32,352 nt of DNA, from the UHGV virus genome UHGV-0176217; one strand, given 5' to 3'. Shown here one piece after another: positions 2,853 through 8,558 of this stretch. The DNA comes from a virus. Position 1 is the first letter of the stretch, and each line of letters begins with the position of its first letter. The notes under the pieces were generated by a model, which saw only the letters and a program-made list of their open reading frames with translations, searched no databases and was not told the DNA's origin. The position numbers and the translations under genes are program-made.

Positions 2853-3128
2853 ATGAGTATCCGTATCGAGATAAATCATCAGTATGTAGTTACAAGCGAT
2901 CGCTACCAGTTCATTTTGCAGGAAAAGAAAGTGGCGACTGCTGGAAAAAATGAAGGTAGCGAATGGCTTGATACTGTCGGGTATTACCCGACGATTCAAA
3001 AACTGATTTCTGGTCTGGTGCTACATGACCTTTTAAATGGCGGTGCTGATAGTTTTGCGGCGTTGGGTGAGCAGGTCGAGCAGTTGGGACTGCAATGTCA
3101 GACCGCGTTTTGTGCTGATGGCCGTTGA
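2853..3128 (+). CDS. Hypothetical protein (P2 orf81/82 region)
   Basis: Strong AAGGAGA RBS; stop overlaps the A start. Confidence 0.6.
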   Translation: MSIRIEINHQYVVTSDRYQFILQEKKVATAGKNEGSEWLDTVGYYPTIQKLISGLVLHDLLNGGADSFAALGEQVEQLGLQCQTAFCADGR

Positions 3129-5409
3129 GACTCGGGGGCGTATTGCCCCCTCGCTAGCCCTGCCAATATCTAAGCGCACCGGCGATACTTTCGTTGGTGC
3201 TTATCCCTGGAATGCTCCCCGCGCTGCCATTGGCCGTGACAGACCCCTTACACGTGCCGAATTCCGTCAGGTGCAAGGTGTTTTATACCGGATTGACCGC
3301 CTGCCTTTCTTTCTTAAGACGTTGTTTACTTCCCGTTATAACTTCATTCGCCGCACAAAGAGCCCGCTCGGGGCGCTCTATTTCCTGAAAAACACCTTTG
3401 AGCGGAAGCTGTTGCCGCGTCTTGAGCGCGTTAACGAGCTGTGCGGGATGAATGAATCTGCGTCGATTGGTTTCTTGTCTGAGCATGACGAATATGCGCG
3501 CTTGCCTGATATGAATGACAAAGAGCTGAAAAAATTTGCGGCCAGAATTGCCGCGCAGCTCTGGCGTAAATACGAGGAACTCAGCGACGAATGGGCTGAG
3601 GCATTCGGCGGTAAAGAGACCCTTTTCACCGATGAGGCGCAGGTGCACATATATGGTCAGGTGGCTGGTGTTGCACGCGCGTTCAACTTAACCCCGCTCT
3701 ACTGGAAAAAATACCGTAAGGGTCAGATGACGATCCGCATGGCGTTTTCCGCTATTTCCCGTCTGATAAAAGATGATTGGTGGGTTAACCAGCTCAAGGC
3801 GCAGCGTATGCGCTGGCGTGAGGCGCTGCTTATCGCTGCCGGTGAAGTCAACAAAGACCGTTCACCTTACGCCAGCAAAATGGCGATCCGCGAGGTTCAC
3901 TCGCGCCGGCTGGCTAATCTCGAATACCTGAAATCCTGTGAGCTGGAAAACAAAGTTACCGGCGAACGTATCGACCTCATCAGTAAAGTCATGGGGAGTA
4001 TTTCAAACCCTGAAATACGCCGTATGGAGCTGATGAATACCATTGCCGGAATTGAACGCTATGCGGCCAGCGTTGGTGATGTGGGAATGTTTATCACGCT
4101 GACCACGCCGTCGAAGTATCACCCGACCCGACAGGTCGGCAAAGGTGACAGCAAAACGGTGCAGCTCAATCACGGCTGGAACGAAACCGCATTCACCCCT
4201 AAAAACGGCCAGCGCTATCTGTGCCGAATCTGGAGCCTGATGCGTACCGCTTTCAAAGATAACGATTTGGAAGTGTATGGGATGCGCGTTGTCGAGCCGC
4301 ACCACGACGGCACGCCACACTGGCATATGATGCTTTTTTGCAAACTCGGTCAGCGTAAAGCTATCAACGAAATTATGCGTCGTTATGCCCTCAAAGAGGA
4401 CGGACACGAAAAGGGCGCGGCAAAACAGCGCTTTGAGTCGCGTCACCTTAATCAGGGGGGCGCGGCGGGTTATATCGCCAAATACATTGCCAAAAATATC
4501 GACGGCTACGCGCTTGACGGTCAGCTCGATCACGATACCGGCAAACCTCTGAAAGATACGGCCGCAGCCGTAACCGCATGGGCGTCTACATGGCGTATCC
4601 CTCAGTTTAAACCGATTGGCCTCCCGACAATGGGCGCTTACCGCGAACTGCGTAAGCTGCCGCGCGGGGTGAGTATCGCCAGCGAGTTTGACGACCGTGT
4701 CGAGGCCGTCCGGGCTGCTGCAGATGAGGGGGAATTTGACCTGTACATCAGCGCGCAGGGTGGGGCAAACATGCCGCGTGATGCTCAGGTGGTCAGGGTC
4801 GCCCGTAAGGTGACGGATGAGGTAAACGAATACGAGGAGGATATCGAGAAAGTGGTCGGTATTTATGCCCCTCATCTTGGGGCGAGCCGCGTACATGTAA
4901 CCCGTACAGCGGAATGGCGCATAGTTCCAAAGGTTTTGGCCGTTGAGCCTTTGACCTTAAAAAGCGGCGCTGCCGCGCCTCGGAGTCCTGTCAATAACTG
5001 TGGAAAGCTCACCGACGGTGATACTCCAGTTATGACACCCACACCGTCTGAGCAAGCCGCAGCGGTGTTAAATCTGATTGAGCGCGGAGTTATCGGATGG
5101 AATGAGCCAGACGTCATGAAGGCGCTTAACGGTGCGTTAAGAGCTGGCATCCCTCGCAAAAATCGCCAGCAAAGAAGCAATGCGCTACTCAAAACGAGTG
5201 AGCAAGCTCCATCAGCCAGGATGACAAAACCAGAAAGGGATCGCGTGGCGAAAATTCGTTTCGATTTGGCTCAGGAGGGCATTACCCCGGAACGGTGGGA
5301 GCTCGAAGCGCTGGTGCGTGGGGCAACGGTGATTTATGGCGATAAAAAATTCAAATACGCGGCTGCTGATGAGTGGCCGGGATTCTCAATTCAAGAGGAG
5401 TGGAAATAA
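3118..5409 (+). CDS. A: Replication initiation endonuclease A (rolling-circle Rep, HUH superfamily)
   Basis: 763 aa from ATG at 3118 (MAVETRG...); HUH-like motif TPHWHMMLF; paired active-site tyrosines in GYIAKYIAKN; N-terminus matches P2 A as recalled. Confidence 0.9.
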   Translation: MAVETRGRIAPSLALPISKRTGDTFVGAYPWNAPRAAIGRDRPLTRAEFRQVQGVLYRIDRLPFFLKTLFTSRYNFIRRTKSPLGALYFLKNTFERKLLPRLERVNELCGMNESASIGFLSEHDEYARLPDMNDKELKKFAARIAAQLWRKYEELSDEWAEAFGGKETLFTDEAQVHIYGQVAGVARAFNLTPLYWKKYRKGQMTIRMAFSAISRLIKDDWWVNQLKAQRMRWREALLIAAGEVNKDRSPYASKMAIREVHSRRLANLEYLKSCELENKVTGERIDLISKVMGSISNPEIRRMELMNTIAGIERYAASVGDVGMFITLTTPSKYHPTRQVGKGDSKTVQLNHGWNETAFTPKNGQRYLCRIWSLMRTAFKDNDLEVYGMRVVEPHHDGTPHWHMMLFCKLGQRKAINEIMRRYALKEDGHEKGAAKQRFESRHLNQGGAAGYIAKYIAKNIDGYALDGQLDHDTGKPLKDTAAAVTAWASTWRIPQFKPIGLPTMGAYRELRKLPRGVSIASEFDDRVEAVRAAADEGEFDLYISAQGGANMPRDAQVVRVARKVTDEVNEYEEDIEKVVGIYAPHLGASRVHVTRTAEWRIVPKVLAVEPLTLKSGAAAPRSPVNNCGKLTDGDTPVMTPTPSEQAAAVLNLIERGVIGWNEPDVMKALNGALRAGIPRKNRQQRSNALLKTSEQAPSARMTKPERDRVAKIRFDLAQEGITPERWELEALVRGATVIYGDKKFKYAAADEWPGFSIQEEWK

Positions 5410-5873
5410 TGAGCAAAATCCATGAGTTAAAAATTGCACCTGAGCATTTTAACGCTGTGATATCTCAGGAAAAACGTGCTGAATTTCGTCTCAATAACCG
5501 CGATTATTCTAGCGGTGATATTCTCGGGTTGCATGAATGGGAACCGGTAAACGGATATACCGGGAAACGTGTATCAGTGAGGGTGACATACGTTACTGAT
5601 TTATCTGAATGGGCGGAAAATTATGTGATGCTGAGTTTTCAGTTAATGATGCCAGATGTCAAGTGCGGTATGTCCCTAATGAACTGGAAAGAGTTAAGCG
5701 AGAAGGGGCTTGTTTTCAGAATTAATCACGAAATTCTACACCCGTTAGGGCTGGCTATTGGATTTGAAACACTTAACGGCGTTTCGGGGGGGGCTTATGT
5801 CGCTTGTGATGGTGTCTGGCAATATTCCGACAAGCTGGTCGCAGATGCTAAAAAAAATGGGTGGTTAAAATGA
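5409..5873 (+). CDS. DUF3850 / ASCH-PUA-like domain protein with ~65 aa C-terminal extension
   Basis: N-terminus HELKI.PEHF.AV.S..K.AEFR.N.RD...GD.L.L.EWEP is the DUF3850 signature; start overlaps the A stop; occupies the tin/old position. Confidence 0.7.
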   Translation: MSKIHELKIAPEHFNAVISQEKRAEFRLNNRDYSSGDILGLHEWEPVNGYTGKRVSVRVTYVTDLSEWAENYVMLSFQLMMPDVKCGMSLMNWKELSEKGLVFRINHEILHPLGLAIGFETLNGVSGGAYVACDGVWQYSDKLVADAKKNGWLK

Positions 5874-6094
5874 GTCATATGCGAATGATGCCAGTGCCGC
5901 CCGTACATTCAACGCAAAACATTAAGCTGATGGCCGTCGTGCATCGCCTGCAACAAATTATGATTAACGAGAATCTGACCCCTGACGAACTGGTCGGGTG
6001 TGCCGGTGTCGTCCGGGATAATCACCGCAAATACAGCGATATCAGCAATCCGAAAATTGAGGCGTTTCGGCCATCAAATATGGCGAAGCCATAG
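5870..6094 (+). CDS. Small hypothetical protein, translationally coupled (ATGA overlap)
   Basis: ATG at 5870 overlaps the TGA of the upstream gene; no recognisable motif. Confidence 0.35.
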   Translation: MSHMRMMPVPPVHSTQNIKLMAVVHRLQQIMINENLTPDELVGCAGVVRDNHRKYSDISNPKIEAFRPSNMAKP

Positions 6095-6376
6095 CAAACG
6101 CCGCCGGTGCTGAAACTTGTTTTCAGTGCCAGCGGGGTTGACCAACGAGCCCCGCGAGGCGTTAGCCTGTCCCGTAGAGATCACCCCCAACCGGAACGAT
6201 TAAAGCAGGTTTTATTATGCCATTTTCCCACAATTTCCCGGTTTTTTAGCCGTGCATGCAACAGGTGCATTGTTTTGCATGCGTTGGGGATGCCCGTTCT
6301 GGCCGTGCGCCGCCAGAGCTAGCGCGGATCCAGAGTGGTCATGCAACTGCATTAAAACCGACCCATAAAGCGGGCA

Positions 6377-6395
6377 GGCGAGGCGGGGATAGCAT
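6377..6395. other. P2/P4-type cos site (19-nt cohesive-end sequence)
   Basis: GGCGAGGCGGGGATAGCAT followed by TGCGCGCTGA; near-identical to the P2/P4 cohesive end GGCGAGGCGGGGAAAGCAC TGCGCGCTGA as I recall it. Confidence 0.55.
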
Positions 6396-6484
6396 TGCGC
6401 GCTGAGGGGTTTTAAATTTCATTTTTTTTAGTATTATCAAAAAGAATAATTCAGAATTATCTCAAAAAAGGCAAGGGGCACAAT

Positions 6485-7816
6485 ATGGTGATTAATGAAG
6501 TTAGACGGATAGGTAGTGGCGGTTTTGGTAATGTTGATTTAGTGCAAGATGTCCTTAGCGGAAAGCAATTCGCTAGGAAAACATTTTCTATAAATCAAGC
6601 TCAACCGCTGCCTCCTGATTTGGCAGAGAATGTAAAAAAAAGATTTATAAGAGAGGCAAACGTACAGTATAGACTTACGCATAAAAATATTGTACCTGTC
6701 CTTTTTAAAGATCTAAATAGTAACCCTCCATCTTTCCTTATGCCAGTAGCAGCATCTAGCCTTGATAAAGATATTGCGCAAAGTAGAAACTTGAATGGAT
6801 TATTTTTAAGAGCAATAATGGATATTTTGTCTGGACTCGAAGAATTGCACACGTTGCAAATTTATCATCGTGATCTCAAACCACAAAATGTGCTTAGATT
6901 TGATTCAAGTGAAGGTCCATATTACGCTATTAGCGACTTTGGCCTGATGTCAGTAAAAGATACTCAAATTTCAGCACTAACCCATACAGGTATGAAAATG
7001 GGTTCTGATTACTACACCGCACCTGAAATTGTTTCAGATCTTAGAAAAGCTAGTATTGCTTCAGATATTTATTCTTTGGGGTGTATACTGCATGACTTTG
7101 TAGGCACGGATGAAAGAATTCCTTGTGGTGAAATTAATAATGATTCGAGCGCATATGCGCATATTTTACGGGTTTGTACTCGTAGAGATCCTTCAAGAAG
7201 ATTTCCAAGTGTTGCAGCATTAAGGGATGCAATTCTTAGTATTGATCCTTCTACAGTAATACATCTCTCTGCTGAGGTTGGAACATATACTACAGCATTA
7301 GATAGTGACGCCGGAATTAATGTTGAAACATGGAGGGAAATAATCAATTTCGTAGAGGATAATATTGGACAAGAAAACTCCAAGGTGATATTTCAGCGTC
7401 TAACTTTAAACAGGATTAATGAGATAATCGCTCATGATACCACGCTAGCTTGTCGTCTTGGTGAAGCATATGGTCGTTGGGTTGCGGATGGAGTATTTTC
7501 ATTCGAACAGTGTGATGGGATTTGCACTCGTCTCGAACAATTTTTACAACTTCACGATTTGAACTGTAAAGCCGAAATTATTATAGCTATGCTTCTTATG
7601 GGAACGTCGCATAATCGTTGGTATGTCGAGAGACGCTTCATGAGCGTGGCAGGGCACGACATGACTCCAGAACTGGCTAAAAGGCTTGCTTTGGAAATGA
7701 GCATACTTGAGGGTAGAATGTGTGCAGCGGTGAGTCATCTCCAAAGATCAATTGGTGCCACACCTGATATGCTTCATCCTGAACTTTTCGCAATGATACA
7801 AAGAGTATGCCATTGA
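6485..7816 (+). CDS. Eukaryotic-like (Hanks-type) Ser/Thr protein kinase with ~170 aa C-terminal domain of unknown function
   Basis: Gly loop GSGGFGNV; FARK lysine; conserved Glu (REANVQY); catalytic loop YHRDLKPQNVL; DFG (ISDFGLM); APE (YTAPEIV); DIYSLGCIL; AT-rich gene; RBS AAGGGG. Confidence 0.85.
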   Translation: MVINEVRRIGSGGFGNVDLVQDVLSGKQFARKTFSINQAQPLPPDLAENVKKRFIREANVQYRLTHKNIVPVLFKDLNSNPPSFLMPVAASSLDKDIAQSRNLNGLFLRAIMDILSGLEELHTLQIYHRDLKPQNVLRFDSSEGPYYAISDFGLMSVKDTQISALTHTGMKMGSDYYTAPEIVSDLRKASIASDIYSLGCILHDFVGTDERIPCGEINNDSSAYAHILRVCTRRDPSRRFPSVAALRDAILSIDPSTVIHLSAEVGTYTTALDSDAGINVETWREIINFVEDNIGQENSKVIFQRLTLNRINEIIAHDTTLACRLGEAYGRWVADGVFSFEQCDGICTRLEQFLQLHDLNCKAEIIIAMLLMGTSHNRWYVERRFMSVAGHDMTPELAKRLALEMSILEGRMCAAVSHLQRSIGATPDMLHPELFAMIQRVCH

Positions 7817-8517
7817 TTAATAAATTTGCTTACACATCTCCGGGACCTAGAAGCCACAACCAAGACTCTATCTTGGTTGAGATTTTACCCAGCGCTGATT
7901 TGTTATGTGGCGTTGCGGATGGTGTCGGCGGGAATTTGGGGGGAGAAACAGCCTCTCAATTAGCACTGGACATTATTGCTGCGGCCATGCGTTCGGATAG
8001 TAGCATCTCTCTTCTCGAAGCCATAACCCGAGCTGATGAAGCGATCAAAGATGCTGCTCAGAAAGATGGAAAATTGGCTGGAATGGCAAGTACTGTGACT
8101 GTAACAAAGCTTATCGGGAATAAATTGATAGGAGCCAATTGTGGAGATTCTCGGACTTATCTATTAAGAGGAAGTGGCGTCAAACAACTTTCCTATGATC
8201 ACAGTGAAGTAGCTCGTCTACTACGTGAAGGTAAGCTGACGAAAGAGACTGCAGTTGATTACCCTCGTAAGAACATTCTTGATAGTGCCCTTGGTGCACA
8301 CAAGCCTCTACAAGTCCATGAATTTGAATGTAATTTACAGATAGGTGATAGAATAGCTTTGCTATCTGACGGGGTTTCGTCAGTTGTGAGCAAAAAAGAT
8401 TTCCGAGATCTTTCAGTGAAATATAATTCGTTAAATGAGTATGGTGCTAGTGTAATAGAGCTTGTTGAGAGTAGAGAGACTAGGGATAATTATTCATTGA
8501 TTATTTTTGAAATTTAG
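7807..8517 (+). CDS. PP2C-family (PPM) Ser/Thr phosphatase
   Basis: Motifs SHNQDS, ADGVGG, CGDSRTYL, LLSDGVSS; start overlaps the kinase stop by 10 nt. Confidence 0.85.
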   Translation: MPLINKFAYTSPGPRSHNQDSILVEILPSADLLCGVADGVGGNLGGETASQLALDIIAAAMRSDSSISLLEAITRADEAIKDAAQKDGKLAGMASTVTVTKLIGNKLIGANCGDSRTYLLRGSGVKQLSYDHSEVARLLREGKLTKETAVDYPRKNILDSALGAHKPLQVHEFECNLQIGDRIALLSDGVSSVVSKKDFRDLSVKYNSLNEYGASVIELVESRETRDNYSLIIFEI

Positions 8518-8529
8518 TTTTGTAATATA

Positions 8530-8558
8530 GGTGCGTTATTTAAAATGACGCACCTTTT
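8530..8558 (+). terminator. Intrinsic terminator after the kinase-phosphatase operon
   Basis: Stem GGTGCGT / ACGCACC with 11-nt loop, then TTTT. Confidence 0.5.

Follow-up and report, generated by a model that had tools for sequence, protein, structure and literature searches.

In phage P2, the replication gene A is followed on the same strand by orf91 (P2p41, NP_046796, "DUF3850 domain-containing protein"), which overlaps the gene A stop codon, and tin and old come immediately after it. The latter two are non-essential genes of the gpA–gpQ interval with demonstrated anti-phage activity. They are encoded on the opposite strand, where they have a promoter and mapped transcript starts of their own, and the lysogen expresses them. 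A literature search on "orf91" found only "unknown" or an unsupported "essential" remark, and another found no functional study of DUF3850. Within the ASCH superfamily, the active-site triad is K/E/R in the TRIP4/EOLA1 clade and K/T/R in YqfB (bioRxiv 10.64898/2026.08.01.741249), and a structure from Enterococcus faecalis described as an "activating signal cointegrator" (PDB 3IUW) is available as a structural-genomics entry. DUF3850 is also part of phage ParB-CTPase-DUF3850 fusions, which are encoded with parA and enriched in phages and prophages, and for which anti-defence or RNA-related roles have been speculated upon by the authors describing them.

Here, we analyzed the region downstream of gene A in a viral sequence of 32,352 nucleotides (UHGV-0176217, the whole of which is referred to as the window), to which a prophage of Escherichia coli KV7 is 99.9% identical. 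With slightly better than even confidence, we propose that the two genes following A form an intact P2 orf91 module, i.e., a non-core two-gene accessory block, with a lytic-phase function rather than superinfection exclusion as our best guess. The first of these genes is already catalogued in the orf91/DUF3850 family, and so annotated in RefSeq for the KV7 prophage; the result is thus an annotation correction and not a discovery.

Organization and coding status of the locus

Gene A (3118..5409, + strand) encodes a replication endonuclease of the P2 gpA type, based on the RefSeq annotation of the KV7 prophage and on homology to the A genes of P2 and 186. It is followed by ORF1 (5409..5873, + strand, 154 aa), which combines a DUF3850/ASCH domain with a DUF7415 domain, and by ORF2 (5870..6094, + strand, 74 aa), predicted to form a helical hairpin. 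ORF1 is translationally coupled to gene A through a TAATG junction, in which the final A of the gene A TAA doubles as the first base of the ORF1 ATG, with a GGAG upstream of this ATG. At the ORF1/ORF2 junction (ATGA), the ORF2 ATG at 5870 overlaps the ORF1 TGA, and a GGTGG ends 5 nt before it. An initial reading made from the sequence alone (hereafter the sequence-only reading) had noted this coupled 74-aa ORF, which we recovered as a member of phrog_11386 (PHROGs, E 5e-30), although RefSeq/PGAP uses a different start (ATG at 5879, giving 71 aa).

Overlapping A/ORF1 and ORF1/ORF2 junctions, either TAATG or ATGA, are also kept in a clade with only ~54% protein identity; for gene A, the junction is ATGA in P2, 9W, and VB-YPM-4, and TAATG here. 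At dS of about 0.5–1.1, the dN/dS ratios were 0.15–0.19 for ORF1 and 0.11–0.17 for ORF2, with a broader ORF2 range of 0.07–0.2, and both genes are under purifying selection. Taken together, the low dN/dS and the recurrence of the junctions in a divergent clade indicate that ORF1 and ORF2 are real genes and not chance ORFs, in line with PHROG matches for both. The GC content of ORF1 is ~45%, vs. 53–61% for gene A.

Both ORFs are encoded on the same strand as A, that of the early (replication) operon, and a promoter scan yielded 9 promoter-like sites where 8.1 were expected from shuffled sequence, so that the signal did not exceed the random level. In a P2/186-like prophage, the block would form the 3′ end of the rightward early operon, and the strand and the translational chaining to A favour a lytic-phase role over prophage-expressed exclusion. 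From this gene arrangement, we infer that ORF1 and ORF2 are synthesised together with gpA during lytic growth, and not from the repressed prophage.

An ASCH domain with a complete pocket motif

The suggestion of a DUF3850/ASCH domain in the N-terminal part of ORF1 was borne out by the Pfam search: DUF3850 (PF12961) matched residues 4–77 across profile positions 1–77 of 77, at 69.5 bits (gathering threshold 22.9; E 2.8e-19), and the ASCH profile PF04266 scored 22.0 bits against a threshold of 21.2 (E 2.8e-4). The full length of ORF1 matched phrog_1812 in PHROGs (E 6.6e-49), while NCBIfam returned nothing for ORF1 or ORF2. The AlphaFold2 (AF2) model of ORF1 (pLDDT 88.4) shows two domains separated by a floppy linker at residues 83–86, the first of which (5418..5639, + strand) has the PUA-like β-barrel fold of the ASCH superfamily. 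Its pocket motif K-x-x-E-x-R is intact as K22-R-A-E25-F-R27, and each of K22, E25, and R27 is ≥90% conserved across 148 relatives.

A Glu at the third active-site position places ORF1 with the TRIP4/EOLA1-like clade. The YqfB clade of ac4C amidohydrolases could be ruled out, as Glu25 stands where a Thr or Ser is required (K21/T24/R26 in that clade), and identity to YqfB is 14%. Unlike ORF1, neither the TRIP4/EOLA1-like proteins nor YqfB nor the 3IUW protein include a DUF7415 domain. Similarly, ORF1 shares DUF3850 with the ParB-CTPase-DUF3850 fusions but has no ParB-CTPase domain and no adjoining parA, its fusion partner being DUF7415 instead.

Because the pocket typical of the TRIP4/EOLA1-like clade is complete, binding of a nucleobase appears most likely for this domain; the ligand could be a (modified) nucleobase, either free or flipped out, of RNA, ssDNA, or a nucleotide, and the domain may possibly also hydrolyse a substituent on the bound base. 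One could go further and view ORF1 as a nucleoside or nucleotide enzyme in its own right, an N4-acylcytidine-type amidohydrolase comparable to YqfB or EOLA1, acting in nucleotide salvage or modified-base removal during infection. The ASCH fold and the intact, nearly invariant triad are consistent with such an activity, and deacetylation of free ac4C has been reported for EOLA1, whose triad is likewise K/E/R (bioRxiv 10.64898/2026.08.01.741249). That preprint also notes another study in which deacetylase activity was absent from murine EOLA1, so that an intact triad is no proof of catalysis, and overall we consider this enzymatic role improbable.

DUF7415 is a mobile phage module

The C-terminal extension of ~65 aa highlighted in the sequence-only reading is indeed present, and corresponds to the Pfam domain DUF7415 (PF24187, 38.1 bits vs. 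a cut-off of 27). This domain spans residues ~88–154 (5670..5870, + strand), with a helix-helix-strand-strand-helix secondary structure in the model, and its conserved core RINxEILHPLGLA...DGxWxY is kept in alignments. We considered whether the HEILH stretch could denote a zincin metallopeptidase, and dropped this reading because the HExxH motif is not conserved: family variants include NYEVLL, NNEILH, NKEILH, NAEILH, and NHKILH, with both the first His and the Glu varying. A literature search found no paper mentioning DUF7415, and the only matches in a structure search against a viral library were phage proteins that likewise contain DUF7415, Wphi Gp92 among them.

DUF7415 is a mobile phage module, found as stand-alone proteins of 57–90 aa and behind other N-terminal domains. 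Replication initiator genes are often its neighbours: DUF7415 genes follow gpA in Escherichia and Klebsiella, overlap the gpA start in Pectobacterium and Erwinia, and in one case (protein P0179) come directly after a Toprim/DUF5906 primase-helicase gene. A role as an accessory of the rolling-circle initiator gpA, e.g., recruiting a host replication factor or binding the displaced strand, would account for this presence on either side of gpA in four genera and after an unrelated primase-helicase gene elsewhere, as well as for the strict coupling of ORF1 to the A stop in two divergent clades. P2 orf91 has also been termed "an essential protein", a statement made without data in the methods section of a preprint (bioRxiv 10.1101/2025.08.28.672839). 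However, 186 and ~80% of the closest gpA relatives lack the block, and P2 replicates with a truncated orf91 and with neither DUF7415 nor ORF2. Moreover, DUF3850 and DUF7415 turn up in late operons and in phages that replicate by unrelated systems. Examples are a site among the tail genes of Kayfunavirus, the gpL–gpX interval of a Pseudomonas P2-like prophage, and the vicinity of nrdD in T4-like phages, and such late or unrelated positions suggest that adjacency to A may just mark a permissive insertion point. We thus view a dedicated replication accessory as unlikely.

ORF2 and its exchangeable partners

Homologues of ORF2 formed 116 clusters, from enterobacteria only, with an invariant core LMAxVHRLQQIMxNENLTPxELVGCA. 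In the AF2 model, helices 16–33 and 38–59 form a hairpin with a core pLDDT >90 between disordered tails. Searches with ORF2 were otherwise uninformative: the best PDB sequence match had an E-value of 0.37, no viral model matched the hairpin fold below E 2, and a literature search found neither an experiment nor a paper giving a function to phrog_11386.

ORF2 and DUF7415 are linked beyond the present locus. In P0179, an ORF2-like N-terminus is fused to DUF7415 (27.6 bits with an ORF2 profile, pairwise E 5e-7, phrog_11386 E 7e-5), and a Pectobacterium prophage encodes both genes with A between them. The slot between A and ORF2 can alternatively be occupied by a protein combining a different helical N-terminal domain with DUF7415, or by a small, very acidic protein. 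ORF2 was nevertheless rejected as an obligate partner of ORF1: it is found without ORF1 in 9 of 80 surveyed loci (see below), and also in PSP3 and P2-EC67, while DUF7415 lacks ORF2 in most other contexts. Since each occurs alone, the pairing is not obligate.

Overall, at least five unrelated genes precede ORF2 in different phages, a pattern that resembles the partner swapping of toxin-antitoxin systems. An addiction pair, with ORF2 as the constant downstream gene and exchangeable partners upstream, would also fit two small genes overlapping by ATGA, and toxin-antitoxin-type genes (SocA_Panacea, Gp49/HigB-like) occupy equivalent positions elsewhere. Against this, searches of Pfam, NCBIfam, PADLOC, and PHROGs linked neither ORF to known toxins or antitoxins, both ORFs are chained to A and seem not to be autoregulated from a promoter of their own, and P2 retains the ASCH half alone, which together make an addiction pair extremely improbable.

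Under the lytic-phase reading that we favour, DUF7415 would be an autonomous adaptor module, repeatedly located beside the replication initiator gene in P2-like phages and here probably acting with ORF2, and the best guess for the role of the block would be either counter-defence or the handling of host or replication factors. Two of the 148 relatives have DUF3850 joined to Lar restriction-alleviation domains, which, along with the very acidic slot occupant, hints towards counter-defence. The domains seen with DUF7415 or ORF2, i.e., ASCH, a helical EIxDFFAGxGxPG domain, and a ClpX-type zinc finger (the latter in a single-chain fusion), raise a more speculative and on balance unlikely scenario. 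DUF7415 and the ORF2 hairpin could represent an unrecognised two-part phage module with interchangeable "head" domains, sited by replication-initiator genes (gpA, Toprim primase), that might serve lytic-phase counter-defence or replication control, the ASCH head reading or editing a modified nucleobase or nucleotide signal.

Relationship to P2 orf91 and to tin and old

P2 Orf91 is 53% identical to ORF1 residues 1–75, i.e., the ASCH domain (E 1e-26), and this identity, together with the shared position after A, identifies ORF1 as the orthologue of P2 orf91. The two differ downstream of this domain, as P2 Orf91 (109 aa) continues from the ASCH barrel into unrelated sequence without DUF7415, and P2 lacks both ORF2 and the hairpin element described below. 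P2 orf91 is thus the truncated copy, with the DUF7415 half, ORF2, and the 72-nt hairpin element displaced by tin and old. By comparison, 9W and the Yersinia phage VB-YPM-4 have the same architecture as the window, including a ~150-aa DUF3850-DUF7415 protein of phrog_1812 (annotated "Orf91 protein" in 9W), an overlapping 68-aa ORF2 homologue of phrog_11386, and the hairpin element. In the Wphi record, the ORF1 counterpart is broken into two genes, orf91 (93 aa) and gp92, the latter a DUF7415 fragment. The DNA of these three phages is colinear with the window from A to position 6165, although their proteins are only ~54–56% identical to those encoded here.

The distribution of the block was evaluated across the 80 gpA-nearest IMG/VR loci, which are neither dereplicated nor independent. 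In this non-dereplicated set, DUF3850 was found after A in 14/80 loci and ORF2 in 20/80, and phage 186, like most close relatives, does not have the block. The ORF1/ORF2 pair is accessory and not core, as the sequence-only reading had anticipated. Its accompanying claim that the pair replaces tin and old did not hold, given that P2 itself has orf91 at this position, upstream of tin and old, and that 9W, VB-YPM-4, and Wphi combine the block with their own cargo genes, located between the hairpin element and cos. This coexistence indicates that the block is a unit separate from the hotspot cargo.

These comparisons also bear on whether ORF1 and ORF2 could be prophage anti-phage (superinfection-exclusion) genes standing in for tin and old. 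The two pairs do share the gpA–gpQ interval and are likewise non-essential, but they show no sequence similarity, and ORF1 and ORF2 are chained to A on the early strand with no convincing promoter of their own, as opposed to the opposite-strand, separately transcribed tin and old. Only one locus of the 80, the P2-type L084, was matched in tblastn searches with P2 Tin and Old, and nothing Tin- or Old-like was detected in the ORF list, Pfam, or PADLOC results for the window. PADLOC gave no significant match for ORF1 (best E 0.054) and no match for ORF2, and in neither did Pfam identify an effector domain such as a nuclease or an ATPase. An exclusion function of this type is accordingly disfavoured, and we regard it as very improbable.

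A conserved element bounds the cargo slot

Directly after the ORF2 stop, an alignment of 26 loci revealed a conserved ~72-nt element (6094..6165, + strand) with a 15-bp hairpin in which 6101–6115 pairs with 6121–6135. This hairpin is supported by 94% paired cells in the alignment and five pairs with compensatory changes, and none of 500 shuffles matched the observed support; the minimum free energy of the element was −38.8 kcal/mol (z −4.2). A three-way-junction minimum-free-energy fold was considered for the same element. Its central hairpin, in the 15-bp extended form, was the sole part with support, the outer stem and second hairpin showing no covariation and many broken pairs. Rfam returned no match in 5300–6600. 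The same hairpin element is present in 186, after orf97. Past GAGGCGTTAG, inter-phage homology stops sharply, and this is where the variable cargo slot has its left edge.

From 6095 to 6376, the window is 88% identical to the right end of 186, and the alignment places a counterpart of the 186 t95b terminator at 6183..6212 (+ strand), with a stem weakened by one mismatch and a T-rich tail after it. The A-ORF1-ORF2 transcript probably ends at this site; as the site was not called by a consensus terminator scan, we infer this role from the alignment with 186. The cohesive-end sequence GGCGAGGCGGGGATAGCAT (6377..6395, + strand), which aligns with P2 cosR and the 186 right end, forms the right limit of the cargo slot. 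This classical slot, from the element to cos, is empty in the KV7 prophage, as it is in 186, and the foreign cargo of this prophage, a Ser/Thr kinase and a PP2C, lies beyond cos.

Implications for P2-like phages

In terms of annotation, the reference P2 orf91 is a truncated relic, and the ancestral unit consists of DUF3850-DUF7415, ORF2, and the hairpin element. The gpA–gpQ "hotspot" can be described as an ordered series, with a small variable A–ORF2 slot on the early strand, a sharp conserved boundary element, a cargo slot, a terminator, and cos, along with a second cargo site beyond cos in this prophage. For work on P2-like phages and defence hotspots, a potentially useful observation is that DUF7415 is mobile, recurs by replication initiators, and in one instance shares a protein with an ORF2-like domain. 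Should the block prove to serve counter-defence or replication control, three widespread phage families would gain a function.

A two-gene module after the replication endonuclease gene

The window is a P2/186-like (Peduoviridae) prophage, 99.9–100% identical in DNA to a prophage of E. coli KV7, a strain from pig faeces in Denmark in which the integration site adjoins yegR. Two small genes follow the replication endonuclease gene A, which ends at 5409: ORF1 (5409–5873, 154 aa), whose ATG at 5409 begins on the last base of the A stop codon TAA, and ORF2 (5870–6094, 74 aa), whose ATG at 5870 lies within an ATGA overlap with ORF1. RefSeq lists ORF1 as ‘DUF3850 domain-containing protein’ and ORF2 as a hypothetical protein whose start is placed 9 nt downstream of 5870; the start at 5870 is favored, since a Shine-Dalgarno-like GGTGG ends 5 nt before it and the starts of homologues overlap. 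Such junction overlaps (TAATG or ATGA) at A/ORF1 and ORF1/ORF2 are kept in two clades only ~54% identical. The GC content of ORF1 is ~45%, compared to 53–61% for gene A.

The sequence-only reading had proposed a DUF3850/ASCH-like protein with an extra ~65 aa at its C-terminus and a small ORF coupled by ATGA, and this description held. ORF1 residues 4–77 match DUF3850 (Pfam, E = 2.8e-19; the ASCH match is weaker), while the C-terminal part matches a second Pfam domain, DUF7415 (38.1 bits, cut-off 27), and this architecture is exactly that of phrog_1812 (PHROGs, 150 positions, E = 6.6e-49). ORF2 is a member of phrog_11386 (PHROGs, E = 5e-30). Against moderately diverged orthologues, dN/dS was 0.15–0.19 for ORF1, alike in both domains, and 0.11–0.17 for ORF2.

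The AlphaFold2 model of ORF1 (mean pLDDT 88.4) shows two compact domains joined by a low-confidence linker at residues 83–86. K22, E25, R27, D30, and R31 are among the residues that hardly vary in 148 relatives. A K-x-x-E-x-R pocket triad characterizes the TRIP4/EOLA1-like ASCH clade, and Thr/Ser replaces the Glu in the YqfB clade (bioRxiv 10.64898/2026.08.01.741249). A YqfB-like salvage enzyme would share the ASCH fold, but ORF1 carries Glu at this position, and this reading is considered less likely. The DUF7415 domain is modeled in the order helix-helix-strand-strand-helix, with structural matches in a viral structure library only to other ‘DUF7415’ phage proteins; its HEILH was considered as an HExxH motif and rejected, as HExxH is not conserved. 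ORF2 is modeled as a helical hairpin (helices 16–33 and 38–59, pLDDT above 90) with disordered tails, for which neither structural relatives among viral models nor sequence relatives in the PDB were found. The ORF2 core, LMAxVHRLQQIMxNENLTPxELVGCA, stays nearly unchanged across 116 clusters, which are enterobacterial.

Relationship to P2 orf91 and structure of the hotspot

The same reading had these genes replacing tin and old of P2, which is incorrect: P2 has an orthologue of ORF1 in the same position, together with tin and old. In the P2 reference genome, Orf91 (P2p41, ‘DUF3850 domain-containing protein’) overlaps the stop of A upstream of tin and old, both of which are encoded on the other strand and have mapped transcript starts of their own. 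This shared position, along with 53% identity between Orf91 and ORF1 residues 1–75 (E = 1e-26), identifies ORF1 as the orthologue of orf91. P2 Orf91, however, has 109 residues, with unrelated sequence after the barrel, where DNA homology to the window ends. Phages 9W (‘Orf91 protein’), Yersinia VB-YPM-4, and Wphi are instead colinear with the window from A to ~6165, after which each carries its own cargo. Comparison of these four phages points to a general order of A, orf91 (DUF3850-DUF7415), ORF2, a boundary element, [cargo], terminator, and cos, relative to which P2 is a derived state, in which tin/old took the place of the DUF7415 half, of ORF2, and of the element. The cargo slot between the element and cos (6377–6395) is empty in the window, where 6095–6376 is 88% identical to the right end of phage 186, a stretch that spans the element, the region of the t95b terminator, and cos.

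The Wphi record splits the gene, with ‘gp92’ as its DUF7415 fragment. Here (NC_005056, 3310–3975), orf91 (93 aa) and gp92 are apparently parts of a single DUF3850-DUF7415 gene, separated by a frameshift or sequencing error, and the unannotated ORF2 homologue downstream is likewise matched in two pieces.

The boundary element is a ~72-nt stretch (6094–6165) directly 3′ of ORF2, which every P2-like phage with ORF2 retains and which 186 has downstream of orf97. Past GAGGCGTTAG, homology between phages stops abruptly and variable cargo starts. The 15-bp hairpin of the element (6101–6115/6121–6135) displays compensatory changes at 5 pairs, matched in 0 of 500 shuffles, and slid controls were poor. 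The element contains no T-tract and no Rfam family, and could be an mRNA 3′-stabilizer, a processing site, or a hotspot recombination boundary. Further downstream, the counterpart of the 186 t95b terminator (6183–6212) has one stem mismatch (AACCGG...CAGGTT, compared to AACCGGC...GCCGGTT in relatives) and was not called in a terminator scan; transcription may run on towards cos more often in this prophage.

Distribution of the module and its domains

As the sequence-only reading had anticipated, the ORF1/ORF2 block is accessory rather than core. In a survey of 80 IMG/VR loci, the nearest by gpA and without dereplication, 14 have DUF3850 after A, 13 of them with DUF7415 (the exception is the P2-type locus), and 20 have ORF2; the two are found together in 11, ORF2 without DUF3850 in 9, and DUF3850-DUF7415 without ORF2 in 2, while other loci have many unrelated genes between A and the portal gene Q. 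The coupling of two small genes would fit a toxin-antitoxin pair, but neither protein matches a toxin or antitoxin family (Pfam, NCBIfam, PADLOC), and this alternative is also rated less likely. Phage 186 has tum/orf97 in place of the block; an ORF2 homologue is found after tumA/tumB in PSP3 and, unannotated, after ORF73 and ORF226 in P2-EC67. DNA of window 5300–6500 (the 3′ end of A, ORF1, ORF2, the element, and cos) is present in 257 of 5,426 complete E. coli genomes, 51 of which cover at least 80%.

The stretch from the A stop to ORF2, on the early strand, also forms a small slot of variable content (window 5409–5870 compared with L035, L061, L065, L080, PSP3, and P2-EC67). Its occupants include DUF3850-DUF7415, a helical domain with DUF7415, a 101-aa phrog_27273 protein, a very acidic 58-aa protein with a match to the C-terminal portion of phrog_519, tumA/tumB, and ORF73 (DUF2158) with ORF226.

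DUF3850 is promiscuous in phages, lying between tail genes in Kayfunavirus and among small early genes in a T1-like phage, and is fused to DUF7415 (15/148 relatives), DUF551 (9/148), or Lar restriction-alleviation domains (2/148), and in some proteins to ParB-CTPase domains (PNAS/bioRxiv 10.1101/2025.10.10.680097). DUF7415 is most often a stand-alone protein of 57–90 aa; in P2-like prophages it follows gpA (Klebsiella), overlaps the gpA start (Pectobacterium and Erwinia), or lies between gpL and gpX (a Pseudomonas prophage). A metagenomic protein of 188 aa (P0179; L096 2597–3163) combines an ORF2-like N-terminus (family profile 27.6 bits, pairwise E = 5e-7, phrog_11386 E = 7e-5), a weak match to a ClpX-type C4 zinc finger, and DUF7415; 19 nt separate its gene from an upstream Toprim/DUF5906 primase-helicase gene, and a Gp49/HigB-like gene follows. 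The slot after A can also hold ORF2 preceded by a DUF7415 protein that has another, helical domain at its N-terminus. These arrangements suggest that DUF7415 and ORF2 may act together and that DUF7415 tends to adjoin replication initiator genes, although neither association is obligate.

In four E. coli proteins (P0149, P0218, P0295, P0297), a Cox/Apl-like or gpB-like N-terminus runs straight into DUF7415; these look like internal-deletion products of decaying P2-like prophages rather than genuine domain fusions. Several P2-like phages carry a DNA methyltransferase gene beside DUF7415 or orf91: in Klebsiella it encodes a DPPY-motif protein (L098 4438–5136), in Erwinia a Dam-like MethyltransfD12 (L100 3038–3910), and in Wphi the cytosine methylase mth (L005 4221–5159). 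This may fit a modified-base theme for ASCH, or be a coincidence of hotspot cargo.

A kinase/phosphatase island beyond cos

The real foreign cargo of the prophage is an island (6485–8517) between cos and the stop of Q (8570), on the far side of cos from the tin/old slot. It encodes a Ser/Thr kinase (6485–7816, 443 aa: a kinase domain and a ~220-aa C-terminal region) and, with a 10-nt gene overlap, a PP2C phosphatase (7807–8517), followed by a terminator-like hairpin (8529–8555). Its GC content is 36–46%, compared to 55–60% for core genes, and among the 5,426 complete E. coli genomes it occurs only in KV7 itself. The kinase domain matches mad6, PD-T4-6, and Stk2 models (PADLOC) and the phosphatase resembles Stp1/IreP, making this a candidate kinase/phosphatase defense cassette that may be worthier of follow-up than the ORF1/ORF2 pair.

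Expression and proposed role

ORF1 and ORF2 lie on the early strand with overlapping junctions, and promoter-like sites are no more common than in shuffles, which suggests that they are co-expressed with gpA during lytic growth, in contrast to tin/old. Prophage-expressed defense is thus less likely. We propose that the locus represents an intact orf91 accessory module of the early operon, in which the ASCH pocket of ORF1 probably binds a (modified) nucleobase, RNA, or ssDNA, the DUF7415 domain would serve as an adaptor, and ORF2 would be its frequent partner. Most likely, the module would act in the lytic phase, in counter-defense or the handling of host or replication factors. The main rival is a gpA-accessory role, with which the junction to A and the initiator-adjacent DUF7415 genes are consistent, but most gpA-closest loci have no DUF3850 gene after A. 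P2 orf91 is termed ‘essential’, without data there, in a methods section (bioRxiv 10.1101/2025.08.28.672839), and is given as ‘unknown’ in an older published comparison; a literature search returned no publication giving a function to DUF3850, DUF7415, or phrog_11386.

The families, the architecture, and the ORF1 gene itself are already catalogued. What is new, if modest, is that P2 orf91 is a truncated form, that DUF7415 and ORF2 can be fused, and that the gpA–gpQ hotspot has an internal structure, with a 15-bp hairpin, supported by covariation, on its left edge.
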